DNA of 64,000 nt from Chanos chanos (Eukaryota). The stretch is taken from positions 33,092,702 to 33,156,701 of the forward strand of contig NC_044504.1 in assembly GCF_902362185.1 (NCBI RefSeq), in the 5' to 3' direction. How positions within the stretch are numbered: the first letter of the stretch is position 1; each line of letters begins with the position of its first letter. Positions 6,500-60,051 of the stretch are shown one piece after another. The position numbers and the translations under genes are program-made. The notes under the pieces were generated by a model. It was not told the origin of the DNA, made no database searches, and saw only the letters and a program-made list of their open reading frames with translations.

Positions 6500-6950
6500 G
6501 CAAAAAATATCGGTTTATGGTTTAAAGATTGGTTTATGACCATGCAGATGTGTTTTTGTGCCACCTAAATGCCACCTTTCTCAACATTAAAACTCATATC
6601 TCTAACCTACAATTAACTGTTCAACGGGAAAAGGAGCACATCACAATTTATTTATTAAACAACAGCAAGCATGCCAAACAGGATGTGAGCTGTATAGATT
6701 TCAGTCAAACACGAGGGTCATGTTACTCAATGGTGGCAAGGAGTAGACTTAGCTCCTCTCTCATGCCTCTCTAATGCACAGTAGTTCACAGTCCTTTTAA
6801 ACCTCAGTCACAGTGCCAATTACAGCTCTGTGATCTAGATTTCATATTCCACCTGGACCTTTGTTGCTTATCATGCAAATAGTTTTTCATCCACTTAAAC
6901 ACCATCTTTTGGTGTTAAAATCCTGCCAAACTTGGCTGTGACACAAATAC
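6500..6950 (+). repeat. Dispersed repeat (about 450 bp), copy 1 (copy 2 at 38590-39050)
   Basis: gattggtttatgaccatgcagatgtgtttttgtgccacctaaatgccacc...ttttggtgttaaaatcctgccaa matches 38590-39050 at about 85-90%. ORFs 6529..6774 and 38643..38879 are artefacts of this repeat. Confidence 0.6.
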
Positions 6951-7340
6951 TAAGTATGTATGGCCGACATCTTGCTCGGGGCGGTACGGGGCACCCCAAC
7001 AAAAAAATCGGAATGGTGACATTTGCACAATTGGTATTCTATCGCTCATTTGCACATCACATCAATGATATCATGTCACCGTGTGGGTCAAGTAACCTTG
7101 GCGTAGTGGGCGCCCTGCTTCTAGTTTGTGAACTAGGTAGGCTCCTGCCTGGGAAGGTCTCCCACTCAGAAGTATGAAATGGGGAGGGGGGAGGGGTTCG
7201 GCTGACCTCAGGTGTGCCCACTGGAAGCCCGAGGTACGGGGAGCGGGGGGATACTATCAAATAGCGCACCTCTAACTTTGTGCAGTACTAATGCAGTTAG
7301 TAAAATCAGTCACACTTCGAAATGCTTCCAAATAACCAAT
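6950..7340 (+). repeat. Dispersed repeat (about 400 bp), copy 1 (copy 2 at 31620-32040)
   Basis: ...catcttgc.cggg...ggcaccc.aacaaaaaaat.ggaatggtgacatttgcaa.attggt...ccgtgtgggtcaa.taacct...gggaaggtctcccactcagaagta..aaatgggga.agggg.ggggttcggctgacctcaggtgt.cccactggaagccc.aggta... is shared with 31620-32040. Confidence 0.6.
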
Positions 7341-7449
7341 GAGTAGCTTCCTGTGTACCTACATTATGTGACGATGCATACTGACTGGCTTACAGTCTAC
7401 ATTCAGGACTTTGCTTATTTTGAGACGTTTTCCAGTGCTTTCATCAACA

Positions 7450-9230: not shown

Positions 9231-10570
9231 TCTTTTTTCAGTGCGCAGCAGTGCGCATACGCCCACTTGCATGTTCTCACACACACACACACATCTCCAG
9301 TCTTATACTCATTCAGTCTAACACTGAATACTTGTACATAGCCTCATTACCATCCTATTACCATTTGCGCTTTGATCATGTTAATAAATAGTATGTTTGG
9401 AATAAACTGTTGTCCTGTCTGTTTCTGCCGCAGTATTCACTGAGTGCCAACCACTGCCATCAGACTACTCCCAATAGCCTTCGTCAACCTGGTTGTTCAT
9501 GTGTGTTTTTAATACTGCAATACTCACAAGACTGTAGCACAGGGTTACAACTAGATTATTCTATTACTTTTAGTAGTTTAATTATAAAGTATTAAACACC
9601 AAAATTAATGGTTAAGAATTTTATGAGACTGATTTATATGAGGCTGATTTGATAATCCTATCACACCTCCATCTTTCCGTGCCCCCATGTTAGGACTGCT
9701 ACTGTACCTACAAGATAATGTTCTGCACAATAGACTCTTTTCTCAGAAAGCACAGTCTCAAAATAATTTGCTCTGATTTTGTATTACCTTGGTATAGCTC
9801 AGAAGAGTAGCATGCAATGTTTACTGGAAACTTTCCACTATCTCTTCTTGAATACATCATACATTGAACTAAAAAGAAGAAAACAACAACTTTGGTTCTG
9901 CGGTGCCCATGGTTAGCTAAGTTCCTGTTCTGTGAACTATAGCTTTGCATAGGGTTTTTTCAGCAGGTGCATCTTAGTTCATTTCTATGGACATGCAAGC
10001 CAAGGCATCATCTTATATGTCTCTGTTTAAAAATCTGTAGTGTCCACTCTATGATTAAAAAAGTGCTGACAGCAGAAGAGACCTAAAATTGGCAAGGCAC
10101 CGGTAAACAATAAGAAGGAAGCTCAGCACACTGAGAGATATACTCTGCATCTGCCATGGTATCTCACTATATATATTGTTCAGCTCTTGTTCAACCACAA
10201 AATATGAACATACTTGAACAAATTTTCCTATACATCTGTTTGTCAGAAAAACATGTGGTTTTCAACTGTGCCCCTGGTTACAGAACATCCTGTCTCACAA
10301 TCTGCATTTGACCTACCAGTTATTTCAGCTTAACTTTTTCTCATGAACGTTCAACCATAGGCCTTTGTCTTTTTTAATATTGCTCTCTGGTACACTGATG
10401 TTGGCAAAGTCCTAACAGGTATCCGTCAGGAGTATGGACTCTTGGTATGCAGGAGTACATCATACACTTTGTGCTTTGAAGTCTCTGAAGATTTGTCACA
10501 AACGTTGCAAAATTGCAGCATGTCAGTGTTTCTGTGAGGTGAATGTGGATTTATATCACAGCCAATAAAG

Positions 10571-14020: not shown

Positions 14021-17000
14021 CACACTGTCTTTCACGCACAATTCGATTTTTGGCCACTTGTTATTTTCTTTTTGCGACTTCTAAAATATAGACCTGGCAT
14101 GCTTTCTTTCTCTCTTTGTCTGAGCACACACTTCAACTTTGGGATTACAGTGCGAGTTAAGGGTTGGGTAGAGTTGTTGGGTTGAGGGCCTACTTGAGAC
14201 TAGCTCTCAAGTTGGAGATCCTTTGTTTCTCTCTCACACACACGCACGCATCTCCACTCTTACACTCATTCAGTCTTACTATGAATACTTGTACATAGCC
14301 TCATTACCATCCTATTACCATTTGCGCTTTGATCATTCTATTTGCTGCTGGTTATTGATTGTACCATATCATTATTAGTTTGCCAAGTAGTGTTGATCAT
14401 GTTAATAAATAGTATGTTTGGAATAAACTGTTGTCCTGTCTGTTTCTGCCGCAATATTCACTGAGTGCCAACCACTGCCATCAAACTACTCCCAACAACC
14501 TTCATCAACCTGGTTGTTCATAGGTGTTATAGATTTAATACTGCAATACTCACTAAGACTCTAGCACAGTGTTACAACTAGATTATTCTATTACTTTTAG
14601 TAGTTTAATTATAAAGTATTAAACACCAAAATTAATGGTTAAGAATTTTATGAGACTGATTTATATGAGACTGATTTGATAATCCTATCACACCTACATC
14701 TTTCTGTGCCCCCCTGTTAGGAGTGCTACTGTACCTACAAGATAATGTTCTGCACAATAGACTCTTTTCTCAGAAAGCACAGTCTCAAAATAATTTGCTC
14801 TAATTTTGCATTACCTTCGTATAGCTCAGAAGAGGAGCATGCAATGTTTGTTGCAAACTTTCCACTATCTCTTCTTGAATACATCATACATTGAACTAAA
14901 AAGAAGAAAACAACAACTTTGGTTCTGCGGTGCCCATGGTTAGCTAAGTTCCTGTTCTGTGAACTATAGCTTTGCATAGGGTTTTTTCAGCAGGTGCATC
15001 TTAGTTCATTTCTATGGACATGCAAGCCAAGGCACCATCTTATATGTCTCTGTTTAAAAATCTGCAGTGTCCACTCTATGATTAAAAAAGTGCTGACAAC
15101 AGAAGAGACCTAAAATTTGCAAGGCACCGGTAAACAACAAGAAGGAAGCTCAGCACACTGAGAGATATACTCTGCATCTGCCACGGTAACTCATTATATA
15201 TATTGTTCAGCTCTTGTTCAACCACAAAATATGAACATACGTGAACAAATTTTCCTATACATCTGTTTGTCAGAAATACATGTGGTTTTCAACTGTGCCC
15301 CTGGTTACAGAGCATCCTGTCTCACAATCTGCATTTGACCTACCAGTTATTTCAGCTTAACTTTTTCTCATGAACGTTCAACCATAGGCCTTTGTCTTTT
15401 TTAATATTGCTCTCTGGTACACTGATGTTGGTGTAGTCCTAACAGGTATCCGTCAGGAGTATGGATACTTGGTATGCAAGAGTACATCATACACTTTGTG
15501 CATTGAAGTCTCTGAAGATTTGTCACAAACGTTGCAAAATTGCAGCATGTCAGTGTTTCTGCGAGGTGAATGTGGATTTATATCACGGCCAATAAAGCAA
15601 TTTCAGAGGCTCTGTTACTTGGAGACAAAGGAAATAAGGGGGATATTATTGTCTTCTTTGGAAGTGTGCTGCAATGTAGCAAAGACATTCAATGAGTAAA
15701 CAACAGTTTACCATAGGCAGGTAGAGGCTGTGCAGAGAACAAGCCTGCACAGAGACAATATCTTCTCCTTTGTCTGTTACAACACATGTCTGTATGGAAC
15801 CAGGGAAAAGGACTGTGGGAGGACTGAAGGACTGGAAAAGCACTGTGCAGATCTTTTATTCTCTGTCAAGTGAACCTGAAAAGCCAGAGATACACTGAGA
15901 TACAAGCCAGCGATACAAGCCAGAGATACACAGAGATACACAAACAGTAAGAGTTTTGTATGTATATGAGTATGGGAGCACTAGATAATGCAGCATTCGT
16001 ATTAAGACACAGGGAGCATGAGACATTTTGTATTGGACAGTCATTCAAACTCAACCATGCCACACATCAGAGGGTTTACAACACACAATCCCCTTAACAG
16101 TTATGTTAAGTTATTAAACACTTTACAATGTGTCAGTATTTTTGACAGGCCCATTTCAGTGTTTTTCTCCCTGTAGGACAGAAATGCCCTAGAGCACAAT
16201 CAATCTATTTATTTTATCTTTGTGTTGTATTTTCACAATGAAAATGACTGATCTGAACTCATATTCATATTCATTGTAAGAGTTCAGTACAATGTGTGAG
16301 TCTTTGAAAAACTGACTGATTCTGCCTGGAGAAAAGGGAAAAAGCCTAATAGAGAGCGTAGCTTGGCTGATGGCTTAGCTGTGTTTCATGTGTAAAGGGA
16401 GAGGTTTTTTTTTTTTGTAAACTCAAGACATCTGTCTCAAAGGTTAGTATGCATAGGGCAGTGGGCCCATCTTCTGTATGTTATATGAGGCAGTGTTTTT
16501 GGTAATACTGCCTTGTTTTGAAATAATATGTTAAGAAGTAAATAATGAATATTGGATGCACATTGGTAAAGCAATAAATTGCATGCAACTAACCCTAGCA
16601 AAAGTTTATCCACTCAGGGTTCCACACCTCATTCCATGCTGATCACAGCAGCAAAGATTTTTGAAATCATTTTAGAGATTAAGGTATGATATCCTCGTGT
16701 GCAGTGTCCTGTTACAATGGATGGTACAAAAATGTTGGAATCACTTCCTTAACCTTCTACATATTCACATTTGTTCCAATTATAATTAGTTTGTCCTAAT
16801 TATACTTATACTAAAAAAAAAATCTTTTTTTTTTTTTTAATTTTTTGGACACCTCAGGTAGGAACCTGACAGGCTTGTTGTGAGACATGGATTGACAAGA
16901 GTATGCAAAGTTGGAGTAGAGAACAAATGCTATAGTTTATTTATAGTGCAAGAAGAGAAAAAATGGCCATTTTATTACAAATACACAAAGAACAAGCTGA

Positions 17001-19752: not shown

Positions 19753-21234
19753 TGTGACAACCATATATGTCTCTGTTTAGAAATCTGTAGTCTCATCTCT
19801 ATAATTTAAAAAGGTGTTTGCAACAGACCGGACAAGGAAGAGACCTAAAATGGATAAGGCTGTGGGAAAGGTTTTGCAGATACTTTTGTAAGCAAAGAGG
19901 CCCAGTGCATTAAAAGATATATTCTGGCTTTCCACTGTGCCTGCCTGTGGTTAGAGAGCTTCCTGTTTTGCAGTCTGTGATGTTTTGAAATATGCATCTG
20001 GTCCACCAGTTATATCAGCTTAACATTTTACCATTAGGGCTCAACCAGTGGTCTTCTTAACCTTCTCATCTATCTTGTGGAGACAGATGAAGCCATATGT
20101 GATTTTCAATTAATTGTATGCTGGGACATATTAGTGTTTTTTTTTTTTTTTTTACTGAACGATCCATTTCAAACTCCCACTAATTTCAGATTCCTGGTTG
20201 TTCCCAGTTGTGTTAATTTCAGCAGTTAAGAAGTTAGTTTCAAGTAAATGTATAATTGTCTCAGAACTCAACATGATTTTGCCAGCACTAGTTCATAAGC
20301 ATGACAGTTTACGAAATTCTATATTTATGTCATAATATGACCTTGCTTACAATGCTGAACTTATTTTATTTTTTCCCCTGACAAATGTAAATGAATTACA
20401 GGAGACAGCAAGCACTTTTAAACAGAGACCACATGGCATGAGGGAGGTGTCCCAATGTATCAGAATCGATCTGGATTCAAAGCCGGCCACTCTACCGAGA
20501 CGGCCCTCCTTGCTGTCTCGGAGGAGCTCCACTTGGCCAGAGTGAAGTCTCTCAGCACTGTCCTCATACTCCTAGACCTCTCCGCAGCATTTGACACGGT
20601 CAACCACCAGATTCTCATGGTTCAAGTACTATCTGTCTGACCATTCCTACCAGGTCTCTTGGAGGAAATCGGTCTCTTCCCCCCGCCCTTTCCACACTGG
20701 AGTCCCACAAGGTTCTGTACTTGGTCCACTCCTCTTTTCTCTCTACTCAGATCACTCGGTCAAGTTATCTCCGCCCATGGTTTCTCTTACCACTGCTACG
20801 CTGATGACACACAGCTGTTCTTCTCCTTCCCCTCCTCTGACTCTCAGGTTCAGCCTCGTATCGCAGCCTGCTTAGCTGACATTGCCTCCTGGATGTCCGC
20901 TAACCACCTCAAACTCAACCTGGAGAAAACGGAGCATCTGTTTTTTCTTGCTAAGAACTCCCCAACGATCAACACTGCAATCACCATCGAGGGATCTGTG
21001 GTGTTCCCCACCACAGCAGCCAAAAATCTTGGCGTAACCCTTGACAACCAGCTGACCTACTCCGGTCACATCGCGGCAGTCATTCAATCCTGCAGATTCT
21101 AGCTATACAACATCAGGAGAATCCGCCCCTTCTTCACACAACAGGCGACCCAGCTCCTTGTCCAAGCGCTTGTCATCTCCCACCTGGACTACAGCAACGT
21201 TCTACTGGCTGGCTTGCCGACCTGTGCCATCAGG

Positions 21235-23319: not shown

Positions 23320-24720
23320 ATGCTTGTGTTTGGCCTTCAACAAAACTCTTGTAGAAAGTCACGAATTGAGGAATGCATATCTGACTGTTCCCAAACAGAA
23401 ATTGGCAGCATCACCTCCAGGACCATCAAACTGAGCACCGGCACTCCACAGGGCTGTGTGCTCAGTCCGCTCCTGTTCACCCTGCTGACCCACGACTGCA
23501 CAGTATCATCCACCTCCAACCTCATCGTAAAGTTTGCTGACGACCCTACATTGGTAGGCCTCATCAGCAACAATGATGAATCTCTATACAGAGCAGAAGT
23601 GGACCAACTAGCAGCGTGGTGCAAAGTCAGCAACCTCTTCCTAAACATAGGGAAAACTAAGGAGGTTATCATTGACTTCAGAAAGACCAGCACCCACCAT
23701 ACCCCCCTGACCATCGATGGTACGGACACAGAGTCAGCAGCTCTAAGTTCTTGGGAGTGCACATCACACAGGACCTCTCCTGGTCCTCACATGTCACTGC
23801 GCTCTCCAAGAAGGCCCAGCAGCATCTCCACTTCCTGCGGCACCTGAAGAAGGCGAGTCTCCCCCATCCATCCTCACCAAATTCTACAGAAGCACCATAG
23901 AGAGCATTCTGACCAGCTGTATCTCTGTCTGGCATGGGAACTGCAAAGCCTGGGACCGCAAGTCCCTACAGCGGATAGTGAAGACAGCTGAAAAGAGCAT
24001 AGGAACTGCTCTCCCATCCATACAGGCCATCAGCATCGTGAAGGACCCAACCCACCCTTCCCACGGCCACTTCACCCCCCTACCCTCTGGCAGGAGGTAC
24101 CAAAGCATCCATGCTGCCTCCTCCAGACTATGCAGCAGTTTCTTTCCTCAGGCTGTAAGGTTCCTCAACAGCTTGAACACTCTCTGACCTCTCCTTTGCG
24201 CAATAAACTGCACAAATGCACCTTTGAACAATCAACTGCACAATCAATTGCACTAACACCCCAAACAACTCACCTACCTGCACAATGCCAATGCTGTTGC
24301 CAGTAATTCACTGTCCGTGTCAGGTGTATGTCTGTGGGTGTTATGTCCTGTTATGTGTAGGTTTGTAATATGTAGGGATTTTTTTGTATGTTGTAGAAGT
24401 TTTACTTTTTAATTACTTAGTACTTTTTCTTTACCCAGTACTTTCTGTCTTTGCTCGGTGCTTCTGTTTTACTTACTCAGTACTTCTGTTTTACTAAGTA
24501 CTTTCTGTTGTCGTGTTTATTACCGCCCCCCCCCCTCCCTTTTTTTGTTTTTGTTTACCCTCACCTCAGTATTAATTGTGCGTTATTTATTATTTTATGT
24601 GGTATTTATTTCTTGTTTGTTTTATGTGGCACTGTGGTCCTTGTGTAACGCAATCTCGTTCCCCTGTATGTATGAGTCATGCATATGTGGAAATGACAAT
24701 AAAAGCAGTCTAAGTCTAAG
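23320..24720 (+). mobile_element. Rex1/Babar-like LINE 3' portion (RT C-terminal half plus 3'UTR with tandem repeats)
   Basis: ORF 23320..23847: LSTGTPQGCVLSPLLFTLLTHDC...IVKFADDPTLVGLISNNDESLYRAEVDQLAAWC...LNIGKTKEVIIDFRK. C-terminus ...LCSSFFPQAVRFLNSL (23978..24187). The 3'UTR has tacttagtactttctg-type tandem repeats and ends gacaataaaagcagtctaagtctaag. Confidence 0.6.
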
Positions 24721-38589: not shown

Positions 38590-39050
38590 GATTGAGCATA
38601 GATTGGTCTATGACCATACAGATATGTTTTTGCGCTGCCTAAATGTCACCCTGTTCAACATTAAAACAAAAAACATTACCTGCTCATATCCTACATTCAC
38701 ATAACTCAGAACCTGAAATTATCTATTCAACGGGAAATGGATCACATCGCAATTTATTTATTAAACAACAGCAAGCATGCCAAACAGGATGTGAGCTGTA
38801 TAGATTTCAGTCAAACATGAGGGTCATGTTATCATTGGTGGCAAGTAGGAGATTTAGCTCTTCTCTTGTGCCTCTCTAGTGCAGTTATTCACAATACTTT
38901 TACACATCACTCACAGTGCCACTTACAGTTATATGATCTAGAATTCATATTCCACCTGGACACTGGTTGCTGACCATGAAAAGAGTTTTTCACCCACTTT
39001 GACACCATCTTTTGGTGTTAAAATCCTACCAAGTTGCTGTGACACAGACC
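38590..39050 (+). repeat. Dispersed repeat, copy 2 (see 6500-6950)
   Basis: Pairwise similarity to 6500-6950. Confidence 0.6.
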
Positions 39051-39394
39051 CAAATACACAGTTTTAAAGAAACATGAAAAAACATGATTGATTTATTTAT
39101 ATATATCATGCATTGCGCCGCTTGAATGGGATAATCTTTTTGAAATAAAATCAGAATCAGGGCTCTAAAGTGGTAAGAGTGTAAACAAATGCGGCTAAGG
39201 GAGGAAAATATTTCTTGGTTATCTGCTTGGTGGTATTCGATCTAACGTTTGATGTTTTGAAAGAAGATTAAGATTTTATAAGATTAAAATGTTACAAACA
39301 CAAACTACGGAAACTGTATTTACCTTAACTGACTTCTCTGGAACATCTGAATTTGGAAATCTGGAACATTTGGATTTAGAAATTGAAATACTAT

Positions 39395-39720
39395 GTGGGG
39401 CCTAGCTGAATACTTTGAATATTTTGTACCATCACCAGACATCTCCGGACTCTTAGAGAGGTGTATTAGTAAAACACGATCACAGGTATATATCTTGTTA
39501 AGTGAATGGAATGTGTTAGACATGCATTCGTTTTCTCTCACTTCTCTCACGCACCTGCCCCACAGTTTAGAAGTTCTCGTTATCCATGGGTGTCAAAGTC
39601 AAAGGCCCTTGGCTGCACGGGTATATCTGTGTGTGTGTGTGTGAGACCTTGTGGTCTAGTCTTCCACCATCAAAACTGTCTGGATGCCTCTGATGACCTC
39701 CTCTCTGCTTTTGCTGTATA
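39395..39720 (+). repeat. Candidate degenerate 5' LTR plus decayed PBS/leader of the ERV
   Basis: 39672-39720 (tgatgacctcctctctgcttttgctgtatac) matches the leader downstream of the 45104 PBS. The upstream 260 bp resembles the 44831-45103 LTR only weakly. Confidence 0.25.
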
Positions 39721-40080
39721 CTCTACCTTTTGTTCAATAAAGACAAAAGAGCTACCTCCAGTCATCGTCGTGCCTGTTTATTATTTTCAGCACTTTTAAA
39801 AACATTGATGCCCAACAATTTGGTGCCGTGACCCGGATGGAATAGAAGACTGTTGAACTTAAAGCGGAGACGGTTGACGAATAATCCGAAGCCAACGCCT
39901 CAAGTGTGTGCGCGTGAGTCGTTCTCAGTTCTATCTCCATTCGAAGTTTAGCTGTAAACTCATATGGTGATTTTTCCTATTAGTCAAAGAAGTTAGACTA
40001 ACAAGTCGGGCATTAAACCTTCTAAGAATGATCAGTGGCATCCTGATGACATTAAAAGGGCATGGGATAAAACACAATGC

Positions 40081-40954
40081 ATGAACGACGGCACAGAAAA
40101 AACTAAATGGCGTTTTGTTGCTCTCTCTAAGCTCAAACAGCATGAGATGAAAGTTGAATGGGACAAATGTCAGCATGAAAGTGGTAAATTAAAATCTGCC
40201 AATGATTTTCTCCGTTCTGAATATAAGAAACTGAAATCTGCTAATGCCTCTCTGTGCTCTAAGAATGAGAAGCTCAAAAAAAAGAGAGAAGCAGGTCCAT
40301 TTTTGCAGCTGCAGTGCAGTTGGCAATCCGCCAGCTCAAGGCAACACCCAGACTTGCTCTTATGGCGATGTGATAAACAACATCGACAGAGGCGCCTCCA
40401 CAGGGTCAAGCTCAGAGTCAACTCCTGTGTTATTTCCCTTGTACTCATGGGAAGAGCTAAAACATTTGGCAGAAATGGTGGATGACCCAAGGGCTTATGA
40501 TGTCAACAAATATGAAGAGGAACAGGAGGGGGATGACTCTGATGACGCACAAATAGCCCTGAGGCAGGTTGAAACAAGATCCCAGAGGATTGTGGGGCCT
40601 ACAGGAGAGGTGATTCTGGATACAGGAGGACATATATCTAGACTAGCCAGCCAAAGGTATGTCCCTCTATCACCAGACATGGTTGAGAAGTTTTCATCAA
40701 GAGTGCCACCTCCCAGAAAGGGAGGAACGAAGACATGGGAAGAGCTCCAAAGGCTGAAAAGAATTTACAATTTACACCCTCTTGATGGATGTCAAATCTT
40801 AGCTGTACATCAAAGTGAGCAGCAAGCTGAGCAATTGCAGGATGCAGTGAATCATAAACTAGACACAGACGACGAAAGTGGTGCATGGAAGAGGATTCAA
40901 ACCTGGTGTATGGAAAATGCACAGCTGACAGTGGACTGGAAGAAAATTCTCTAA
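40081..40954 (+). pseudogene. ERV gag-like region (coiled-coil N-terminus), frameshifted
   Basis: Overlapping ORFs 40081..40485 and 40244..40954. It sits immediately upstream of the protease in retroviral gene order. Confidence 0.5.
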
Positions 40955-41199
40955 TGTAAACAGAAACCAGAGGAGTCAGTCAAAGGGTACGCGAGACGTC
41001 TGAAAAGCGCCACAGAACCAACAACGCCCTCAGCCCTCCATCAGTGCCTCTCAGCAGTCTGAAGCAGCATCAAACAACCTACCGGAATTAGTTTCCCAGT
41101 TTATACGGCTACCGCCAGAGATTCAAAACCTACTCATGGGGAGTGTTGGAAACACATCCCAGGGAAACTGCTAAATCACCCCTCTCTTCAATCTCTGTC

Positions 41200-41520
41200 C
41201 ACAGCTGTCCAACAGCGGGCAGATGGTTTGTATGTGGAAGTCACAGTTGGACCTTGGAGTGTAGATTTTCTCATTGATACAGGTGCTCAAGTAACTGTCA
41301 TTTGAGATATATACAAATTGCCCCTTAGTGATAAAACAGCAGAAGGTTGTGGTGTTGAAGGGACATCTCAATTCCTCTTAAGACAAACAGTTCCTGTTTA
41401 CATTCAAATTGGGCCTATTACATTGACCACACCCATTTGGACTGGGCCAGTAAGACAGGCTTTATAGGGACTGGATGTTCTTAGTCAAACTAGTTCAGAC
41501 ATCCAATTCAAGGATGGGAA
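41200..41520 (+). pseudogene. ERV aspartic protease remnant
   Basis: VTVGPWSVDFLIDTGAQVTVI (the D-T/S-G-A active-site motif) is followed by an in-frame TGA. More stops follow downstream. Confidence 0.6.
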
Positions 41521-41533
41521 GATTAATTGGCTA

Positions 41534-42334
41534 TTGCGAAATTTAACTTTAACCCAATTAGCTGATCATCCAGTTTGGGCTACAGATAAGAATGATTGTG
41601 GGTGTTTGAAAATGCAACCTGCCACCTTCACAGGCTCCCCACCACCTTCAGCTAAACAATATCCCTTAAGTATACAGGCGGTCCAAGGAATTCTACCAAT
41701 CGTTAAACAGCTGGAAGAGAAAGGCATTCTGATTCAAATCTTCAGCAGCAGTAACAGCCCCATTTGGCCAGTCAAAAAAGCAGATGGAAGCTGGCACCTT
41801 ACAATTGATTACCGAGAAGCCAATAAACACATTGACAAGCTTACACCTCTTGTAGCAGACCCATCTACCATCTTTAAGGTCATCAAACCATCACATCAAT
41901 GGTTTTCAGTCGTTGACATGGCTAATGGCTTTTGGTCAGTACCACTCAGCCCAGATGTACAACCTTGGTTTGCGTTCACAGTCAAAGGGCAGCAGTATAA
42001 GTGGACACGCCTCCCACAAGGATTCCATAATTCACCCACTGTGTACCATCAAGCACTAAGAAAAGATTTAGGGAAATTGACAGATGTGTCATCCACCGTG
42101 GTTCAGTATGTTGATGATGTATTAATAGCATCTGATGACAGAGAGCAACATGAGCAGGACGTGCTGAAGCTGCTAGACCATCTAGCGAAGCAAGGTCACA
42201 AAGCCAGTCTGAAGAAGGCACAGCTCAGTCAAATAGAGGTAACCTATTTGGGTCAAAAGATTTCACAAGGTCAACGAGAAATCACCCAGATAGGAAAACG
42301 GCTGTTAAATCATCTCCGCTACCAACAACGGTGA
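41534..42334 (+). pseudogene. ERV reverse transcriptase domain
   Basis: ORF 41534..42334: PIWPVKKADGSWHLTIDYREANK...LPQGFHNSPT...QYVDDVLIAS (YVDD box). Confidence 0.85.
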
Positions 42335-43400
42335 GAGAATTAAGATCTTTTCTTGGTCTTTGTAATTACAACAGGACATGGGTAGCTGGATATGCTGAGC
42401 TCACTCAACCTCTGAATAACAAACTCAAGGGTAATCCTCATCCAAAGGATCAGCTGACATGGACTAATGAGGAGAAGCAGGCCTTTGACAATGTGAAACA
42501 GGCTCTGATAACAGCTCCCGCTTTGGGAATTCCAGACACCTCAAAACCATTTGTTCTCCACGTCCATGAGCATCAGGGGTACATGACAGCAGTTCTAACT
42601 CAAGAATGGGGAGATAAAGACAAACCTGTGGGTTATTTCTCAGCTCAGTTAGACCCTGTGGCACAAGGCATGGGACCATGTCTTAGGGCAGTGCAAGCAA
42701 CATACTTGGCAGTTCATGTAACAGGATCCCTTGTCCTAGACCAGAAACTGACAGTCAGATGTCCTCACGCTGTACACACTATCCTCAGTATAGGACAATC
42801 TTCACAAGTGACAGCAGCCAGATGGACAAAATGGTCAGTAGCTCTGGAAATGCCAAACATCACAATTGAGAAAGCCACTCCCAGTAACCCAGTTACTATG
42901 ATGACACCTCCCAACGATCCTGTGAATGACGAGCATGACTGCTCCAAGGTAATTCAGGCATCATTGGAGGGTGACGAACACATCAAAACAACTCCGCTAC
43001 AAAATCCTGACTTTTGTAGGATTTTTGTAGGAAAATACTGTTTACTGATGGGCCTTCCATGACCATGGAAGGAAGATGGAAAGCAGGATGGGCGGTGACT
43101 TCAAGTCATGAGGTCATGGCAAGTGGTTCAGCTCAACAAGCAGAACTCCATGCACTTACTGAAGCACTAAAAGTGGCAGAAGGAAAGACAGCAAACATCT
43201 ACACTGATTCCAGGTACGCCCTCTGGGTGGTCCATGATTTTGCAGCCCTGTGGAAACAGAGAGGATACCTGATGGCCACAGGCACACCCATACGCAATGG
43301 CAAAGAAGTAGCTCAACTGCTGGACGCTTTTAAATTACCAGATGTTCTCGCAGTACTCAAGGTTAAAGCACACTCCAGACAAGAGGACGAGGTCAGTAAG
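42331..43400 (+). pseudogene. ERV RT connection plus RNase H
   Basis: ORFs 42331..43062 and 43059..44240 (N-terminal part). It has the RNase H motif ...ANIYTDSRYALWVVHDFAALWKQRGYLMATG.... This is gamma/epsilon-retrovirus-like (compare MLV YTDSRYAF). Confidence 0.75.
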
Positions 43401-44706
43401 GGAAATGCGATGGCAGATGAAGCTGCTACAGCTGCCGCAAGGAGGGGTGATGAAAAACGTGATGAAAAGAGTAATGAAAACTCTGACAGCAGCAATGTTG
43501 ACTCAGCTCCAAACGACATGGATGAGACTTTTCATGGTGGCATCACGAGAACGCCCACCAGCAGAACTGAGGAATTGCGACATGTCATTGTCCGCGATCT
43601 TAAACACATTTCTGAAGTGCAAGACAGTGCAAGCCCAGAGGAGCAATGGACTTGGATGGAGAATGGTGCAAAGCTGCATGATGACTTAGTATGGAGGAAA
43701 GGTGACAAGGTCATTGCCCCTTCCTGCCTCTTGTCATATCTGGCTCAGCAGATAGATAGCGTCGGCCACATTGGACCCAAAGCATTGGTCTCAAGATTTT
43801 CTTCAATTTGGTATAACCCTCTCTTTAGAGCGGACGCCCAGAAAGTTAAAGACACTTGCATCATCTGTCAACAGCGTGATCCTTCTCCCGGAGCCCCAGT
43901 TCCAAAGCTTCGACCAAACGCGCCACCTGGACCTTTCAGACATCTGCAAGTCGATTACATCACCTTGCCAAAGATAAAAGGGAAACAGGACGTCCTAGTC
44001 ATCGTTCCAGATGGATTGAAGCATATCCAACAAAGAAGGGGACGGCCTCCCACACAGCCAAAGTGCTGGCACAGGACATCATTCCCCATGGGGACTCCCT
44101 GGCACCATAGACTCAGACCAAGGAACACACCTCACAGGAAGGGTGTGTCAGGAAGTGTGCCGACTGCTGGGTGTCCAGTGGTCATTACATTGCGCTCACC
44201 AATCATCTGGAATGGTGGAAAGAGCCAATGGCATTCTTAAAGCACGACTGTCTAAAATGCACTCAGAAGGACTTTCATGGGTTGATGCTCTTCCTATGGC
44301 TCTTTGCAGCATGAGAGCGACAGCCAACCAAATAACAGGACTCAGCCCTTTCGAAATCATCACAGGACGACCAATGAAGCTTCCTGGTACGCCAGATCTA
44401 CGCGAAGCTGACGTCCACCTTCTCTCTGACTCTCTTTTTCAATACTGTTGCGAGCTCACTAAAGGTCTCAGCAGCAGAAGCACAGGTTAGGGAGGCCTGG
44501 GGAGAGCCATTCTTTAATACCAGGACAGTGTGTCATGATTAAGAAATTTCCACGCTCATGTGTAGAACCAAGATGGGAAAGGCCATTCCCAGTCTTATTA
44601 ATTACACCATCAGCGGTTAAAGTACAGGGCAGGAAACGTTGGGTTCATGCTTCACATTGTAAACAAATTAAGGGTGTTCAAAGTGTAGGAGCCAGCGGGA
44701 AGAACT
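43400..44706 (+). pseudogene. ERV integrase (HHCC zinc finger, DDE core, C-terminal SH3-like domain), frameshifted
   Basis: HIGPKALVSRFSSIWYNPLFRADAQKVKDTCIICQQ (zinc finger). The DDE core is split across ORFs 43059..44240 and 44143..44490. The C-terminal domain is at 44500-44706: ...PGQCVMIKKFPRSCVEPRWERPFPVLLITPSAVKVQGRKRWVHASHCKQIKG. Confidence 0.7.
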
Positions 44707-44830
44707 GAGTTGTTTAGAGGCTCAGGGGCCACCCCACGGTGAAGATAGTTTGCTGTCAATGTTATTTAGCTCCCACCTGCACTTTGATTAGCTTCCATCC
44801 TTATTTTAAAAAACTTCATGGTTAATAATA

Positions 44831-45103
44831 TGTGTTGTGACGAATGTTACTCCCCAATATGTTTCTGCTTTCTGTGTTTTACAGGCCTGAGATACACCGG
44901 CGCCTTCCACCAATGTACCACGATTGGTTCTTAAGGTGTCCACGTCTGAGTAAACCACGAGAGTTGAGCTTAACAGCTCACCTGAGTCTGCAAGCTCTTC
45001 AACAGACTCAGAGGGCAAGCAGCTAAGTGGTTGTTTGAAGATCCCTGTGTTCTAGCAGTAGGGTTTGTTTCGTCTTACCGACAATCAGACATACTCCTAA
45101 TCC
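44831..45103 (+). repeat. Candidate retroviral LTR (about 270 bp) immediately upstream of the tRNA-Pro primer binding site
   Basis: It starts TGTGTTGTGACG... just after the IN C-terminus and ends ...cctttaacagat directly abutting the PBS. Boundaries are approximate. Confidence 0.4.
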
Positions 45104-45121
45104 TTTAACAGATTGGGGGCT
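45104..45121 (+). other. Primer binding site TGGGGGCTCGTCCGGGAT, an 18/18 match to the MLV-type PBS complementary to the 3' end of tRNA-Pro (as I recall it)
   Basis: Read directly from the sequence (gat|TGGGGGCTCGTCCGGGAT|gacctcctctctgc...). The downstream leader gacctcctctctgcttttactgtatac is shared with 39690-39720. Confidence 0.6.
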
Positions 45122-45479
45122 CGTCCGGGATGACCTCCTCTCTGCTTTTACTGTATACAGCAACCACTATATATGTCTGGATATATTTCCAAAACTGTTA
45201 GAACAAAAAAATCTGAATGTATGGTTGTAAAAGCTAATTTATTGTAAGAAACGATTAGCAGTTATGCGCCTGTTATGCAAGCCCACAATAACCTTTAAAT
45301 AGGTTTATTTTGGTCATATCGACTTGGAAAATGGACAGCAAGGATAATTTAGTTATGGCTTATTTCTTACATACCTGCTGCATTTGTTTCTACAGCAATG
45401 TTTGAGGTGGCTGTTATGTTTTGTTGTATGTGTAGTCACGGCATAGCATTCACTGTAATTACGACGAGTTCGAGTATGC

Positions 45480-45720
45480 GCAACAAATTCAGTTCATTTT
45501 GCCCTATCTCGCAATGTTAATGGAAGTGCAAAATAATATGTGGATCCACCCCGTGAGTCGGCTTCACTCCAAAATTTAATGGGTTCTTCCTTGGCCCATG
45601 CTACACCCCTCCACCAAGTTTCATGAAAATCGCCCCAGTAGTTTTTACGTAATCTTGCTGACAAACAGACAGACAGGCAAACAAACAGCACCGAAAATAT
45701 AACCTCTGTGACGGATATAG
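45480..45720 (-). repeat. Fragment of a widespread teleost repeat
   Basis: ...ggcccatgctacacccctccaccaagtttcatgaaaatcgccccagtagtttttacgtaatcttgctgacaaacagacagacaggcaaacaaacagcaccgaaaatataacctc.... This motif recurs very often in fish genomes. ORF 45494..45742 is an artefact of it. Confidence 0.3.
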
Positions 45721-46261
45721 AAAATAAATAAAAATCGCTCATCTTTGAAAAGAAAACATCACAGCTGTTAGGGTAAAGCCTACCAAATTACCACATTTGA
45801 AAATATCACAGACTTTGAAATAACAAAATGAAGAACAGCAGCTTTGAAATGATTAGCTGTTTTGCCATATGCCAAGGTATTTTCTTTAAAAAAAAAAAAA
45901 AAAGCATTCAAATGTAGCCTACGCTCAAAAACACAAACGTCATCACACTGGTTTATGTAATTAATAACAAAAAGAGACATGAACAGCCAAAATAACACTA
46001 ATAAATAACAAAGTAAAACAAACTTAACAAATGAAACGTGGGAGTCCCGGGACCCGCAGTTTATTTTTTGACCGCCCATTCCCAACAAAGTTAAAACCAC
46101 CCGCTTCCACGAGATTTGCCTTTCAGGACCCAATCCCAATGCAGTCCTTCAGACCAGATCACCTGGGTTGTTTCCTATGTGAACTGAATTCAGACCACAG
46201 CAAGAGTCCAATCTACATTACTGCACTTAAGTCTACATTTGTCCTTTCTCTCGTAAACAGT

Positions 46262-46300
46262 ATGGAAGAAGAAGAAGAAGAAGAAGGAGAAGGAGAAAAC
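46262..46300. repeat. (GAA)n / GGAGAA microsatellite
   Basis: gaagaagaagaagaagaaggagaaggagaaaa. Confidence 0.85.
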
Positions 46301-46469
46301 TAACTAACCTGTACAGCATTACTGAGTAATCATGCATATGAAACATTGTCAACTACTGCAATATAAAGCCACAGTGAGTTGCTTCCTGCATACCTGCAAT
46401 AGGTGACAATGCCTAGTGACTAGCTTACAGTCTACATTCAAGGACAATGACCATGTTTTCCAATACTTT

Positions 46470-48170
46470 CATCAACACCTTACACTGGAGAGTGTTGATG
46501 TACACTAGCACTGAAAATGTGTATAGTATAACCAACACTTCTTGCAATATATAACCAAGCTTAGAGTTCATTTAAAACTGGTGAAATGGCTCTGTGAATG
46601 GAGGTGTTCTCTGTTATAAATGTACATTTACTCTACAAACATTTCCTGCTTTGGATCAACATGAGAAGAAATAAAGCTGGGAACGAGTTAGCAAAATTTT
46701 GACAGTAATGAGAAGCTGAGAAATTGTACAAATCAGCTGCTGTCAAGGCAAAGACACAAACAGTATATATTGATGTTTTATATAAAACATGAATATATAA
46801 AATCTTATCTCCTTCAAACAAAATATGTGGTGAGTGTTTTTTATTTTGAAGGCAGGCCTGTGATTCCTTTCTTTGATAGTGTTAAAAGAGCTCGGCATCT
46901 GTGAGAATGATGCCGGTCACTTGTCTGTGTTTCATTAGTAAAGTGAAAGTAAAATATGGCTACTTTGAAAACTCAGCAGTCTCTCTGGAACTTGAGAGCA
47001 TACATGACAGTGGGTCTGCTCTCTGCATTTAAAAAGACCATAAAACAGGATCCATTTTGGAAACACTGCTGTAATTCCACATAAAATGTACAGTGGATAA
47101 ATAGCATCAGTAGATTCAATTAAATGTATGTGACCCTCCCCAACAATTTTTACTAAGCATTACAAACAAACACAGGGCATTCCACATAGTTCAAACCACA
47201 GACTTTATCTTGTTTGCTTTGTTTTCATCACTTTTGAGATTGAGGTATGGAATCCCAAGGTTGTGCTGTGTCTTCTTGTCAAGGAATTTACAAAAAAGGT
47301 CACTTGTTCAGACTGTCAGAAGATTTGCAGTTATCCAGCATATCACCAGCTATTAAACAGATGGAGCCAAGGGATGAAGGCATTTCATGGTTTTGAGTTT
47401 GTTTCATTTCATTTTGTTTTTATGACTATCATGCTATATGTAGCATGCTGCACTGTGACACGCTTCTTTAAAGTGAATATATGCTGGTTTGCATGCCATC
47501 CAAGTTCTGTGGGATTTTTCTGTTTAGTTCTTTTAAAATAATGATACTGCATGTATTTATTGAATTATCCAGTGTAATCCGTACCTTACCAAATGAGCCC
47601 TTTTTCCTGCCCTAAAACCCACTGACAGCACATAATAGCATACAAAAATGTTATACTAAGCCTTTTCAAAAACCCCAGACTGTCGTGACATGCCTGTTTT
47701 TCTCTCACATTGTTTTTCTGTTTCTTTTTCACTGACTTCCTTACAACGCTGGTGAAAATGTTTCTTTCATTTTGTTTTTTTTGTTGTTGTTTTTTAATGA
47801 CAGATTGCTTCTTCATTTTTCACAAGGCTCTCAAGCACACTGTTTTTGTTGGCATGATCAGATATTTTATCATATATTTTGTGGATATCACATTTCAAGA
47901 ATTATCACAAATTATTCATGCTGCAATATTTCCTCAAGGCGAATATATGTGGACTTGCATTCTACCCAAGTTCCTTATTTTTAGTGTTTTGTTGTTTTTG
48001 GTTATTTCCAGAATTATATCACTGACAGCTCAGGACAACTTATATATTTAATCTTAATCATCGGTTTCCTATGACAAAGGAGTACTGTAACTACAATAAC
48101 TGCTATCATAAACACAGAAATTAGTCCAGTCAGATAACAGTACAAAACAACATACAAAATAAGCAATAAG
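46470..48170 (+). repeat. Segmental duplication, copy 2 of 7450-9230
   Basis: See the copy 1 entry. Confidence 0.7.
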
Positions 48171-49519
48171 TCAAAAGTCTTCTGAAAAGTCCTAGATGCT
48201 GAAAAAAAAAAAATCTAAACTTCATAGTGGCATCACCTCTAGGTGTCTGCGTGGTCTGTGGTTACTCTAGTGAACGTGTTATCAAATGTCATGCCTGATA
48301 TGGCATAGCTGAAATAGGCCTGAGAGAACACACAATCAGGTCTTATTTAGTTCACTAATTCTTGATCCAATAAATCCAATAATATTGATGTAACTAGACC
48401 TTTATAAAAAACTTTTGAAATAATAATGCAAGAGGGAGGGGGCTAGGTTTGTATGATGGGGTAAGAAGAATATAATAAAGAAACAGTGTGGAGGAGTTTA
48501 GACAACTGAAGACAATGGAGAGAGATATAGATGATGATGATTACTGGAAGAGGGGACAATAGAGAAGAGAAATCTAATGTACTGAGGAGATAAACTACAG
48601 ACAGAAAGCATACCATAAGGAGTAATGAGGGTATAATCGACAGGCATCAATTCTTAATCCTCTGAAAACAAGAGGTTTTATATCCTTTGTTTTGTGAGTT
48701 TACACAGGCTCACAACGGTTACAGTCTATGGCATCTTCATTGTGAGCACTTTAAGTGCTACTCTAAGGTTATTATTGTTCTTATCTTCATCTAAATTCAT
48801 GAACTTTTGGATCACAGAAGTTAACTGAGTACTTGTGTCTATTAACTCTCAGAATTACATTCAGATGGATCATCTTATCAGAACAAAATGGAAAAATCCT
48901 ACAGAATTTGAGTATGGCACTGATCCATATATGTAGTCTGTACCTTGAAAAAACATGCAGCAACATGGTTGTTCTCACAGTACATCTTGAGGCACACAAT
49001 GGGAGTAATCTTTTAAAAGTCAATACCACGGAGCAAACAACCAAGAAATATCTCCCTCTTCACTTGACTGCATTCACTTACATTCTTGTTTTATCAGACC
49101 ACTGCATCTTCTCTCAGTTTAACCTATACTGATCTAAACAAGATTAGGAGTTTGCATGCAACATTATAAACCGAAATTGAGGAGTCTACGTTTACCTGAA
49201 ATGGCCTCTCTAGAACACCTGGATCTGGGATTCAAATATATTGTAATCCAGCACTGTTAATTCCAATTATATTGTCTATATAATAATATCCACTGTGATT
49301 CTTAGGATTCCTATGAATTGAGTATGAAATTTATAGAACTATTATTTTTGACTGCATTTTAGGTTGTTACGGAAAGTAATCATATTTGGTGAAAAATAAA
49401 TTAAATAGAAAATGCAAGTTAAAAAATGGTACAGACAAATACTCTGGAAATTGTTACAATGGATCTAAAAGGTGAGGTTCCCCTTTACAGAATTTTGCAT
49501 GAAAGGGTTGATCACTCTA

Positions 49520-55978: not shown

Positions 55979-56353
55979 TCATTGTAGAAGTGATGTTCTT
56001 GATGAAGTTGCTCCATAGTCCATCCTTGAGGTGGACTGTGCCCTTGAAGAGGTTGTTTGAGGGATGGAGGTCAAATGAAGGTTTGGATCAGATAGAGTAA
56101 CCCATACATCTGTTAGATCAGTGTGCAGATTTGGGGAATCAGAGGGCTGTGAAATTTGATCTATCAATGATTCACAAATCTTTTTGGCCCGTGCTTTGAC
56201 TAACTCTTCTAATTTCTCCTTCACAAATTCATCAGTCCTTTCTTGTTGATAGTCTTCATACAGAGTCTTGTAATATGGCTTGAAACGCAAACGAAAACAA
56301 GAAATCACCATCCACATGACTGATACCACTGCCAGAACGCTCAATCCGATGAT
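55979..56353 (-). CDS. CALHM/FAM26-like channel, paralog F, exon 2 of 2 (TM4, C-terminal helix, acidic/Ser-Thr tail)
   Basis: ORF 55979..56371 (-). Acceptor tttttcaAG|ATCATCGG (plus-strand cttgaaa at 56354-56360). Reading frame is continuous with exon 1: ...YKAISH|IIGLSVLAVVSVMWMVISCF RLRFKPYYKTLYEDYQQ.... This matches CALHM TM4 followed by the C-terminal helix. Intron is about 171 bp. Confidence 0.7.
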   Translation of the reverse strand: MIGLSVLAVVSVMWMVISCFRLRFKPYYKTLYEDYQQERTDEFVKEKLEELVKARAKKICESLIDQISQPSDSPNLHTDLTDVWVTLSDPNLHLTSIPQTTSSRAQSTSRMDYGATSSRTSLLQ

Positions 56354-56524
56354 CTTGAAAAAGATTAACAAACATTGTTATAAACTCCATTTGTAAATGC
56401 ATTTTGGCCTATTATTCCAGGCATTTCACAAAGGATTATTATCTAATCACTTTTCAGTCCTGTAAGTCTCTTTGATTCAGTCATTACGAACTTCAGTCAT
56501 TATGTAGCTATTAAATATACTTAC

Positions 56525-57001
56525 ATGTGAAATGGCCTTATAATGTCTCAGCATTGCAAGCTCCTCAGCAGAAGGTTTCTCTTTACAAGTGATTTGCTCT
56601 AGCCCAGCTGTGGCATTACAGTTTGTGGTTACAAGACACACAAACCAGTCCCCATCGATAAACGCTGTGACGATCCATAATATCCCAGCAGTGAAGGCTT
56701 TAAGGATACATCTGAAGATTGTACAGTAGTTCTTTTTGATGTGGTTTATGCACTGATATTTGACACAGATTCTGATGGACAGCCCATCAATGATGAGTGT
56801 AATCAGGAAAAGTATGATGAATGGTACAAGCATGTAAACAAAGCAGACTGCATAGTTTTTCACTGGATCACATGGACATTCAAATTCCAGTTTGAACAGA
56901 TATTGAAATATGACAAAAAGAATAACAAATGCAAATGCACTGCCTGTTAGTAATGCATTCAGTACTTTGGTGGTGAACTCTGGATGCTCTGGACGCACCA
57001 T
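56525..57001 (-). CDS. CALHM/FAM26-like channel, paralog F, exon 1 of 2 (N-terminus, TM1-TM3)
   Basis: Long ORF 56477..57001 (-). It has the motif FKLEFECPCD (compare FDFNCPC in CALHM1), a VPFIILFLITLI TM2 segment, and ILWIVTAFIDGDWFVCLV (compare VVWVAVTLLDGKCFLCAF). GTAAGT donor is on the minus strand immediately after the codon for ...AISH (plus-strand acttac at 56519-56524), so the exon ends at 56525 in phase 0. Confidence 0.72.
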
Positions 57002-59010: not shown

Positions 59011-59379
59011 TCATGATTGTAGAAGTGATGTTCTTGACGAGTTTGCCCCATAGTCCATCCTTGAGGTGGACTGTGCCCTTGAAGAGGTTGTTTGAGGGAT
59101 GGAGGTCAAATGAAGGGTTGGATCAGATAGAGTAACCCATACATCTGTTATTTCAGTGTGCTGATCAGAGGGCTGTGAAATTTGATTTATCAATGATTCA
59201 CAAATCTTTTTGGCCCGTATTTTTGCTAACTCTTCTAATTTCTCTTTCACAAATTCATCAGTCTTTTCTTGTTGATAGTCTTCATACAGAGTCTTGTAAT
59301 ATGGCTTGAAGCACAAACGATAACAAGAAATCACCATCCACATGACTGATACCACTGCCAGAACGCTCAATCCGATGAT
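59011..59379 (-). CDS. CALHM/FAM26-like channel, paralog G, exon 2 of 2
   Basis: ORF 59011..59397 (-). The acceptor context is the same as in paralog F (caatccgatgatcttgaaaaag on the plus strand). Protein: IIGLSVLAVVSVMWMVISCYRLCFKPYYKTLYEDYQQEKTDEFVKEKLEELAKIRAKKICESL... in frame with exon 1. Confidence 0.7.
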   Translation of the reverse strand: MIGLSVLAVVSVMWMVISCYRLCFKPYYKTLYEDYQQEKTDEFVKEKLEELAKIRAKKICESLINQISQPSDQHTEITDVWVTLSDPTLHLTSIPQTTSSRAQSTSRMDYGANSSRTSLLQS

Positions 59380-59550
59380 CTTGAAAAAGATTAACAAACA
59401 TTGTTATAAACTCCATTTGTAAATGCATTTTGGCCTGTTATTCCAGGCATTTCACAAAGGATTTTTTCCTAATCACTTTTCAGTCCTGTAAGTCTCTTTG
59501 ATTCAGTCATTACGAACTTCAGTCATTATGTAGCTATTAAATATACTTAC

Positions 59551-60051
59551 ATGTGAAATGGCCTTATAATGTCTCAGCATTGCAAGCTCCTCAGCAGAAG
59601 GTTTTTCTTTACAAGTGATTTGCTCTAGCCCAGCTGTGGCATTATAGTTTGTGGTTACAAGACACACAAACCAGTCCCCATCGATAAATGCTGTGACGAT
59701 CCATAGTATCCCAGCAGTGAGGGCTTTAAGGATACATCTAAAGATTGTACAGTAGTTCTTTTTGATCTGGTTTATGCACTGACATTTGGCGCAGATCCTC
59801 ATGAACAGCCCATCAATGATTAACACAGTCAAGAAAAGTATGATGAATGGCACTAACATGTAAACAAGGCAGACTACATAGTTTTTCATGGGATCACATG
59901 GGCACTCAAATTCCATTTTGAACAGATACTGATACACTACAAAAAAAAACACAAGTGCAAATGCGCTGCCTGTGTGTAATGCTTTCATTGCTTTGTTACT
60001 GAAGTGTGGATGCTCTTGATCATGATGCCCTGGTTGCTCTGGATGCACCAT
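59551..60051 (-). CDS. CALHM/FAM26-like channel, paralog G, exon 1 of 2
   Basis: ORF 59503..60051 (-): ...YQYLFKMEFECPCDPMKNYVVCLVYMLVPFIILFLTVLIIDG...ILWIVTAFIDGDWFVCLVTT...RHYKAISH followed by GTAAGT donor (plus-strand acttac at 59545-59550). About 90% amino-acid identity to paralog F. The N-terminus is about 8 aa longer (HHDQEHPH insertion). A downstream alternative Met (MKALHTG) exists. Confidence 0.72.

Follow-up and report, generated by a model that had tools for sequence, protein, structure and literature searches.

Known systems and how the locus compares with them

In a live virus, a primer binding site (PBS) of the MLV type, 18 nt long, anneals to the 3′ end of tRNA-Pro and primes minus-strand DNA synthesis. 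The tRNA-Pro site studied here shares with the MLV-type PBS all 18 nt and a position 3 nt after an LTR end in ...CA. It differs in being devoid of a leader and gag of its own, in having its last base fused to the R region of the 3′ LTR of another endogenous retrovirus (ERV), and in its host, which is a teleost-like genome and not a mammal. Fish retroviruses of the WDSV and ZFERV type are, like the elements treated here, class I-like retroelements of fish, a likeness drawn by description, and WDSV has been reported to use a tRNA-His primer site. In contrast to these viruses, the clade to which our locus belongs has neither env nor accessory genes.

The related proviruses used for comparison were retrieved via their RT and integrase (IN) proteins and comprise L001-L003 of GCA_977066305.1 and L063-L065 of the piranha Serrasalmus rhombeus (GCA_051861685.1). 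They have in common with the provirus of the window (the whole 64-kb stretch of DNA that was analysed), hereafter ERV-A, related RT, RNase H and IN, an identical tRNA-His PBS (PBS-His), LTRs of the form TG...AACA, 4-bp target-site duplications and the lack of env. The copy in the window differs from them in that the polypurine tract (PPT), the U3 of the 3′ LTR and most of the region following IN are missing, in that it carries an LTR-like segment coupled to the tRNA-Pro site (X-PBS-Pro), and in having a gag without detectable similarity to theirs. The LTRs of the relatives measure 406-510 nt, start with TG and end with AACA; their PPT is AAAGGGGGAAT, and about 1 kb of non-coding sequence follows IN, with no env. 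Their 4-bp duplications are exemplified by CATC in L003 and ATAT in L065.

Nested insertions of LTR elements that are later cut down by internal deletion belong to the general decay of ERVs and LTR retrotransposons. Our locus is similar to such cases, with a fragment lying within another element in the same orientation and microhomology at the deletion junction. It differs from them in that the fragment ends at the last base of a PBS and a 30-nt island of R is left. Retroelement cDNA can also be captured at chromosomal breaks, as with Ty1 in yeast, and PBS insertions occur at 2-LTR circle junctions; cDNA capture is not known from germline ERVs of vertebrates. The locus shares with cDNA capture the ends to be expected of a reverse-transcription intermediate and an integrase-free join by microhomology, capture being here one reading of the data. 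An ERV fragment inside a decayed ERV is a known kind of structure, which at this locus has one curious feature, a strong-stop-like junction.

ERV-A is a single provirus with confirmed boundaries

ERV-A is flanked by two copies of the target-site duplication ACTA, located at 39390-39393 (left) and 45166-45169 (right) on the plus strand. The pre-insertion sequence was rebuilt by joining the left flank, AAATACTA, to the right flank, TATATGTCTGG, and was compared with the window. It matched 16 of 19 positions at 6945-6963 (plus strand, AAATACTAAGTATGTATGG), where the left flank, a single ACTA and the right flank follow each other as in a paralogous empty site, and this was the sole non-self match in the window (0.04 expected). 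The flanks of ERV-A have paralogues in the same window, with 38600-39046 corresponding to 6526-6945, 45202-45219 to 6998-7015 and 46372-48172 to 7337-9232. The empty site is colinear with these flank homologies and lies exactly between them, and it confirms the boundaries of ERV-A. The ACTA duplication and the paralogous empty site therefore show that ERV-A is one provirus, originating from a single integration and spanning 39394-45165.

The coding region and class of ERV-A

The first ORF of ERV-A, a putative gag of 236 aa (40244-40954, plus strand), was so assigned from its position only; it gave no Pfam match and no homologues, and showed no similarity to the gag of the relatives. Pol follows on the plus strand at 41195-44708, encoding protease, RT, RNase H and integrase with at least four frameshifts, as established by Pfam and by tblastn with the pol of L003. 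The Pfam domains found in the ORFs at 41534-44708 were RVT_1, RT_RNaseH_2, RNase_H (E = 4e-19), Integrase_H2C2 and MLVIN_C (E = 1.4e-12, in the ORF 44535-44708). The YTDSRYA motif noticed in the preliminary description is present in the RNase H ORF (43059-44240).

The closest solved structures to the ERV-A RT were the RTs of MLV and XMRV (E = 1e-46 to 3e-47), as compared with 1e-42 for foamy virus and 1e-20 for HIV. In the protein collection, the best RT match was 57-65% identical. The amino acid identity to the pol of L003 was 44-67%, and that to the Serrasalmus proteins was 58-68% over the integrase. Of the features that define class I, ERV-A has a gammaretroviral-type RT, an MLV-type IN C-terminus, a 4-bp duplication and a PBS after the 5′ LTR; it has neither two homologous LTRs, nor a polypurine tract, nor env, an env ORF being absent from the window and the relatives alike. 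Judged from its sequence, ERV-A is a class I, env-less gag-pol ERV that is MLV-like in RT and IN, in agreement with the gamma/epsilon-retrovirus-like character proposed earlier. The locus is decayed and inert.

ERV-A has its own tRNA-His primer binding site in the 5′ region

The 5′ LTR (TGTGGGG...CCCAACA, plus strand, 39394-39817) abuts the left target-site duplication. It has in common with the LTRs of the relatives the TGTGGG start, GATGAC, CAATAAAG, CAATAAA and the AACA end. Its U3 extends over 39394-39691, R begins near 39692, and AATAAA is at 39736-39741. A 3-nt spacer (ATT, 39818-39820) separates the LTR from a PBS of the tRNA-His type, TGGTGCCGTGACCCGGAT (39821-39838, plus strand), which is unique in the window. 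The identical 18-mer stands directly after the 5′ LTR in L001 and in L063-L065, and L003 has it with a 1-nt insertion, so that, of the five related proviruses from two other genomes, four have it exactly. Compared with the reverse primer for human tRNA-His-GTG-1-1, the match was 17/18. The own primer site of ERV-A is a perfect predicted PBS of the tRNA-His type, not of the Pro type.

We have also compared the position of the 30-mer GATGACCTCCTCTCTGCTTTTGCTGTATAC (39692-39721, plus strand; repeat family D7), which lies 15 nt upstream of AATAAA and 100 nt upstream of PBS-His. It opens with GATGAC; L001 and L003 have this motif at the corresponding position, with the TATA box 40 nt upstream of it and AATAAA 32 nt downstream. 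The 30-mer is therefore the start of R or lies within a few nucleotides of it. The L002 junction and the TATA spacing of the relatives would be compatible with R starting perhaps about 7 nt further upstream of GATGAC; in the 5′ LTR of ERV-A, no TATA was found at -30 from 39692.

These assignments change the reading of the 5′ region. The preliminary description had placed a decayed PBS (tggatgcctctgatgacc, at about 39681) and a shared leader of roughly 30 nt in a stretch that lies 15-55 nt upstream of the AATAAA of the 5′ LTR. The supposed decayed PBS is located inside the 5′ LTR, and the real one is the His-type site at 39821-39838. The shared 30 nt were recovered as a repeat (29/30 between 39692-39721 and 45129-45158), but they belong to R of the 5′ LTR and not to a leader. 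On the 5′ side, the family thus has a PBS and an LTR boundary other than those proposed. With the true PBS (tRNA-His), the LTR boundary and the duplication found, the paradox of a PBS standing after a 3′ LTR dissolves.

A perfect tRNA-Pro site near the 3′ end of ERV-A

The 18-mer TGGGGGCTCGTCCGGGAT occurs as a single exact copy in the 64-kb window, on the plus strand at 45114-45131. Its earlier identification as an exact MLV-type tRNA-Pro PBS was correct, the 18-mer being perfect and unique, but the coordinates then given (45104-45121) were 10 nt too low. In dinucleotide-preserving shuffles, 0/100 contained a match even when up to three mismatches were allowed, and the chance expectation for an exact 18-mer is about 2e-6 in 128 kb. 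The same 18 nt form the MLV PBS core of a published probe (PMC4587795), and the reverse primer for human tRNA-Pro-TGG-3-1 begins with them (PMC12217144). The perfect 18-nt site was complementary to the 3′ end of tRNA-Pro at 18/18 positions, with human tRNA-Pro as the reference. The tRNA-Pro PBS at 45114-45131 is genuine.

Downstream of PBS-Pro there are 27 nt of the R of ERV-A, about 7 nt of a U5 end and the host flank, with no leader, gag or pol belonging to the site. Searching the window by tblastn with the pol of L003 revealed no second pol, and no PBS-Pro-like sequence (up to 5 mismatches) was present in the elements of any of the relatives. PBS-Pro is here an inert relic with no gag-pol of its own downstream, and it does not belong to the replication apparatus of ERV-A.

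A tRNA pseudogene or SINE origin of the site was considered and is unsupported, tRNA genes having been found neither in the window nor at the loci of the relatives, and the Rfam search having given 0 matches. An apparent similarity to tRNA-Pro antisense beyond the 18-mer (GACCTC) was also rejected; it needs a 10-nt gap, and the same bases are found in the 5′ LTR copy.

The segment preceding the tRNA-Pro site

PBS-Pro is preceded by a foreign LTR-like segment, X (TGTG...TTTAACA followed by GAT), at 44831-45113 on the plus strand, with its left boundary bracketed to 44709-44836. X starts 123 nt after the integrase stop. With the intervening spacer (44709-44830, plus strand), the native non-coding 3′ region probably begins. 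The spacer contained no AAAGGGGGAAT-like polypurine tract, and no clade-type PPT was found between IN and 45200. When 44600-45200 was compared with the post-IN regions of the relatives, only a weak 22-nt match was obtained (E = 0.21). X and PBS-Pro together stand where ERV-A should have the remainder of its sequence after the integrase, its PPT and its 3′ U3.

An LTR had previously been proposed at 44831-45103, following the integrase. An LTR-like segment does follow IN, but it has no second copy and is unlike the 5′ LTR. Global and local alignments of 39394-39691 (the 5′ U3) and 44831-45128, and ungapped ones with offsets up to ±6, revealed no similarity (global z = -0.1, local z = 0.4, ungapped identity 29.5%). 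As noted in the preliminary description, the two LTR regions share only the 30-mer; their U3 parts are unrelated. Relations by reversal, complement, reverse complement, transitions only (hypermutation) or shuffling (identical composition) were tried between 39394-39691 and 44831-45128, and none was shown. There were no other copies of X in the window.

The length of X plus 15 nt of PBS is 298 nt, which is exactly that of the 5′ U3.

X ends in ...TTTAACAGAT/TGGGGG, which corresponds to the U5 terminus and the spacing of the clade (AACA + 3 nt), the U5/PBS junctions compared being ...CAACAGA/TGGTGCC in L001 and L003 and ...CTAACAACT/TGG in the piranha copies. Its start, TGTG(TTG)TGACGAATG, resembles TGTGAGATTAC of L001. 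Based on the clade-type U5 end and spacing and on the TGTG start, X can therefore be read as the 5′ LTR of a second ERV. As no clade PPT precedes it, X also sits like a 5′ LTR and not like a 3′ LTR. This second ERV, to which X presumably served as 5′ LTR, would be primed by tRNA-Pro and belong to the same clade. It is by its termini and position only that X would qualify as an LTR: a clear TATA box or AATAAA was absent from it, and in a MAFFT alignment of R-U5 ends it was not convincingly placed beyond the terminal AACA. The 25-mer formed by the U5 end and PBS-Pro gave 0 matches in viral contigs.

Such an assignment comes close to one of the earlier suggestions, namely the 5′ LTR plus PBS of a related, truncated ERV, although the foreign piece ends at 45131 and not at about 45160. 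That the second ERV would be the younger one does not follow, since both PBSs are perfect and the evidence points neither way.

The 3′ LTR remnant and its junction with the foreign piece

What lies past the foreign piece, at 45129-45158, is R of the own 3′ LTR of ERV-A. This remnant (plus strand) corresponds to the first 30 nt of R and matches 39692-39721 at 29/30 positions. It is followed by a U5 terminal remnant, AGCAACC (45159-45165, plus strand), where the 5′ LTR has CCCAACA. The latter assignment is based on the fit of CAAC.ACTA to the expected "U5 end + ACTA", a fit equalled by only 0.08% of the 11-mers of the window. About 90 nt of R-U5 are missing between 45158 and 45159-45165, and the remainder of the 3′ R-U5 was not found elsewhere in the window.

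The foreign piece stops exactly at base 18 of the PBS and joins R within a 3-nt microhomology, GAT (PBS end at 45131, R homology from 45129), giving the arrangement X-PBS-Pro-GACCTCCTC... at the locus. An 18-mer of the R 30-mer had 0 matches in viral contigs, and the 55 loci that it matched in metagenome contigs were all chance matches with unrelated flanks.

Two of the relatives were found to be broken at an equivalent place. In L001, the LTRs are otherwise about 99% identical, and the 3′ LTR breaks off exactly before GATGAC. In L002, integrase-coding sequence is fused to R-U5 via an AGATT microhomology, with R-U5 ending at a proper CA, and the junction lies within 7 nt of the equivalent ERV-A junction point. 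Taken together, ERV-A, L001 and L002 suggest that breaks at the U3/R border recur in this clade. The more distant ERV L059 (GCA_977065575.1) was uninformative for LTR and PBS.

Origin of the tRNA-Pro piece

Standard reverse transcription yields identical LTRs from one template (review PMC6894440). As ERV-A results from a single integration and both of its LTRs would have been made from one template, X most likely arrived after integration; models in which a single cycle of reverse transcription puts X-PBS-Pro at the 3′ end only were rejected for the same two reasons. The reading that we favour, while giving it somewhat less than an even chance, is that a second ERV was nested in ERV-A and that a deletion then ran from its PBS to R, with an additional loss of about 90 nt of R-U5. 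The second ERV, a member of the same clade, would have inserted, in the same orientation, into the non-coding region of ERV-A downstream of the integrase. A later deletion would have reached from the final base of the inserted PBS to where R begins in the ERV-A 3′ LTR, with GAT at the join; the remainder of the second ERV would have been lost, and with it the polypurine tract and the 3′ U3 of ERV-A. Another deletion, of about 90 nt, would have taken most of the R-U5 that was left, and the second ERV would remain with its 5′ LTR (about 280 nt) and the 18-nt PBS only. This sequence of events has its weaknesses. Of random deletions in a provirus of about 7 kb, roughly 1 in 1,000 would be expected to break at PBS base 18, and nothing in the nested deletion predicts this breakpoint. 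The 27-30-nt island of R can be left behind only by two deletions or by a single complex event. X has no clear TATA or AATAAA, and neither a second copy of X nor a full-length tRNA-Pro ERV was retrieved. If X-PBS-Pro were instead part of a tandem provirus (LTR-internal-LTR-internal) or of a recombinant of the same ERV, as had been suggested earlier, the PBS would belong to the next unit, in keeping with its place after an LTR-like segment at the 3′ end of pol and with the recurrence of the following 30 nt near the 5′ end. The data contradict such an arrangement and leave it scarcely credible: the PBS of ERV-A is of the His and not the Pro type, the 30-mer falls within the 5′ LTR and precedes the real PBS by 100 nt, X shows no relation to that LTR, and only 34 nt separate PBS-Pro from the end of the provirus, where the matching duplication stands, a single copy of which is found in the empty site. 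Very improbable, too, is an assembly chimera or a meaningless chance juxtaposition. The join could not be checked against reads, but an exact 18-mer is expected only about 2e-6 times in 128 kb, PBS-Pro adjoins a clade-type U5 end, and the flanks are colinear with the paralogue.

The exact extent of the foreign piece would be compatible with another origin, which we regard as possible but rather doubtful, namely plus-strand strong-stop DNA (U3-R-U5 plus an 18-nt copy of the primer) of a tRNA-Pro-primed relative. The modified base 19 of the tRNA stops plus-strand strong-stop synthesis at PBS base 18, and the piece has the corresponding extent, from a TGTG start without PPT to an end at PBS base 18. 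It could have been captured at a chromosomal break in the 3′ end of ERV-A and joined by microhomology. Alternatively, in a mixed virion, it could have been extended on the ERV-A minus strand after a non-homologous second strand transfer, giving rise to a lineage X-PBS-Pro-R-U5-PBS-His-gag-pol that was later nested in ERV-A and recombined with the 3′ LTR via the shared R-U5. The join by a mere 3-nt microhomology (GAT) agrees with a strong-stop origin, as do the acceptor point immediately before GATGAC, which is the break point of the L001 3′ LTR, and the fusion of IN to R-U5 in L002 within 7 nt of the junction. Against it, no precedent for the capture of strong-stop DNA in the vertebrate germline was retrieved, the 5′ LTR has no TATA at -30 from 39692, and the true 5′ end of X is bracketed only to 44709-44836. 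The version with extension in a mixed virion requires several further steps and is weakened by the possibility that R starts about 7 nt upstream of GATGAC. The junction hints at strong-stop DNA, and nested insertion followed by deletion is equally tenable; that the 301-nt piece (X + PBS-Pro) is a germline fossil of plus-strand strong-stop DNA, captured or extended heterologously, seems to us on the whole unlikely. We have finally considered X as the own 3′ U3 of ERV-A, with unequal LTRs arising by intermolecular plus-strand transfer between two subfamily RNAs or by gene conversion, the donor of the latter being a subfamily whose U3 ends in a captured PBS-Pro. The length of X plus 15 nt of PBS (298 nt, that of the 5′ U3), the TGTG start of both, the single integration shown by the duplication and the availability of conversion homology on both sides (pol and R-U5) all fit such an origin. 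However, there is no PPT before X, the approximately 1 kb that follows IN in the relatives is missing, no promoter-like TATA stands about 30 nt before R, standard reverse transcription yields identical LTRs (PMC6894440) and the equal length is perhaps due to chance, and we consider it improbable.

Significance of the locus

The locus adds a member to a clade of env-less, tRNA-His-primed class I ERVs that is also found in the piranha and in GCA_977066305.1, where cluster P0001 has roughly 390 members. Should the strong-stop origin be true, the locus would preserve, in the germline of a vertebrate, a rare natural instance of strand transfer gone astray or of cDNA capture, and would record an interaction of ERV lineages with different tRNA primers. 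Considered with L001 and L002, it would then also indicate that aberrant strand transfer recurs at the U3/R border in the clade. If a replicating recombinant lineage had existed, copies of X would be expected to show GACCTCCTCTCTGC..., with R-U5 and PBS-His following PBS-Pro.

Within the foreign piece itself, the 192 nt at the 3′ end of X including PBS-Pro (44940-45131) folded well, with z = -2.5.

Genomic setting of ERV-A

The window carries an internal duplication, with the paralogous blocks 6526-9232 and 38600-48172 sharing 72-90% identity; the ORFs 8776-9111 and 47710-48051, one in each block, are nearly identical. The empty site of ERV-A, the decayed class I provirus found at 39394-45165, comes from this duplication. 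Immediately 5' of ERV-A, a segment of ~330 nt (39047-39385) is missing in the paralogue; direct repeats of AAATAC bracket it (39052-39057 and 39386-39391). The segment could be another small insertion, or could reflect a deletion in the paralogue.

The surroundings of ERV-A are a host gene cluster, in which an exon resembling calcium homeostasis modulator (CALHM) recurs in tandem on the - strand (3210-3635, 56477-57001 and 59503-60051; Pfam Ca_hom_mod, E=6e-16), together with partner ORFs (55979-56371 and 59011-59397). Two fragments of non-LTR (LINE-type) reverse transcriptase (20659-21102 and 23320-23847; RVT_1) sit in a GC-richer stretch at 20-24 kb of the window.

U3, leader and putative gag of ERV-A

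The 5' U3 (39394-39691) is 298 nt long, which is exactly the length of the foreign LTR-like segment inside ERV-A when taken together with 15 nt of the tRNA-Pro PBS that follows it (44831-45128). The two sequences are unrelated, and we have treated the match in length as a possible coincidence.

The putative gag (40244-40954) had no Pfam domain, no homologue in a search of 5.8 billion proteins and no similarity to the gag of the related proviruses. Despite the dissimilar putative gag, the pol of one relative (L003) was 44-67% identical to that of ERV-A at the amino-acid level. Tandem repeats occupy the leader between PBS and gag in the piranha ERVs (70 nt; L063 5709-6387, L064 5242-5742 and L065 9214-9702) and in the related provirus L001 (81 nt; 7982-8276), whereas the ERV-A leader has none.

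Broken 3' ends in related proviruses

L001 is a young provirus with ~99% identical LTRs (7126-7531 and 14319-14733). Its 3' LTR ends exactly 5' of GATGAC, that is, at the U3/R border, and the break is followed by 27 unrelated nt with a terminal CA and then by TATGT, which also adjoins the 5' LTR. In another relative, L002 (12520-12660), an R-U5 terminating at the normal CA is joined directly to integrase-coding sequence via a 5-nt microhomology (AGATT), with U3, PPT and the integrase C-terminus missing. The L002 junction looks like the product of an aberrant first strand transfer or of a microhomology-mediated deletion.
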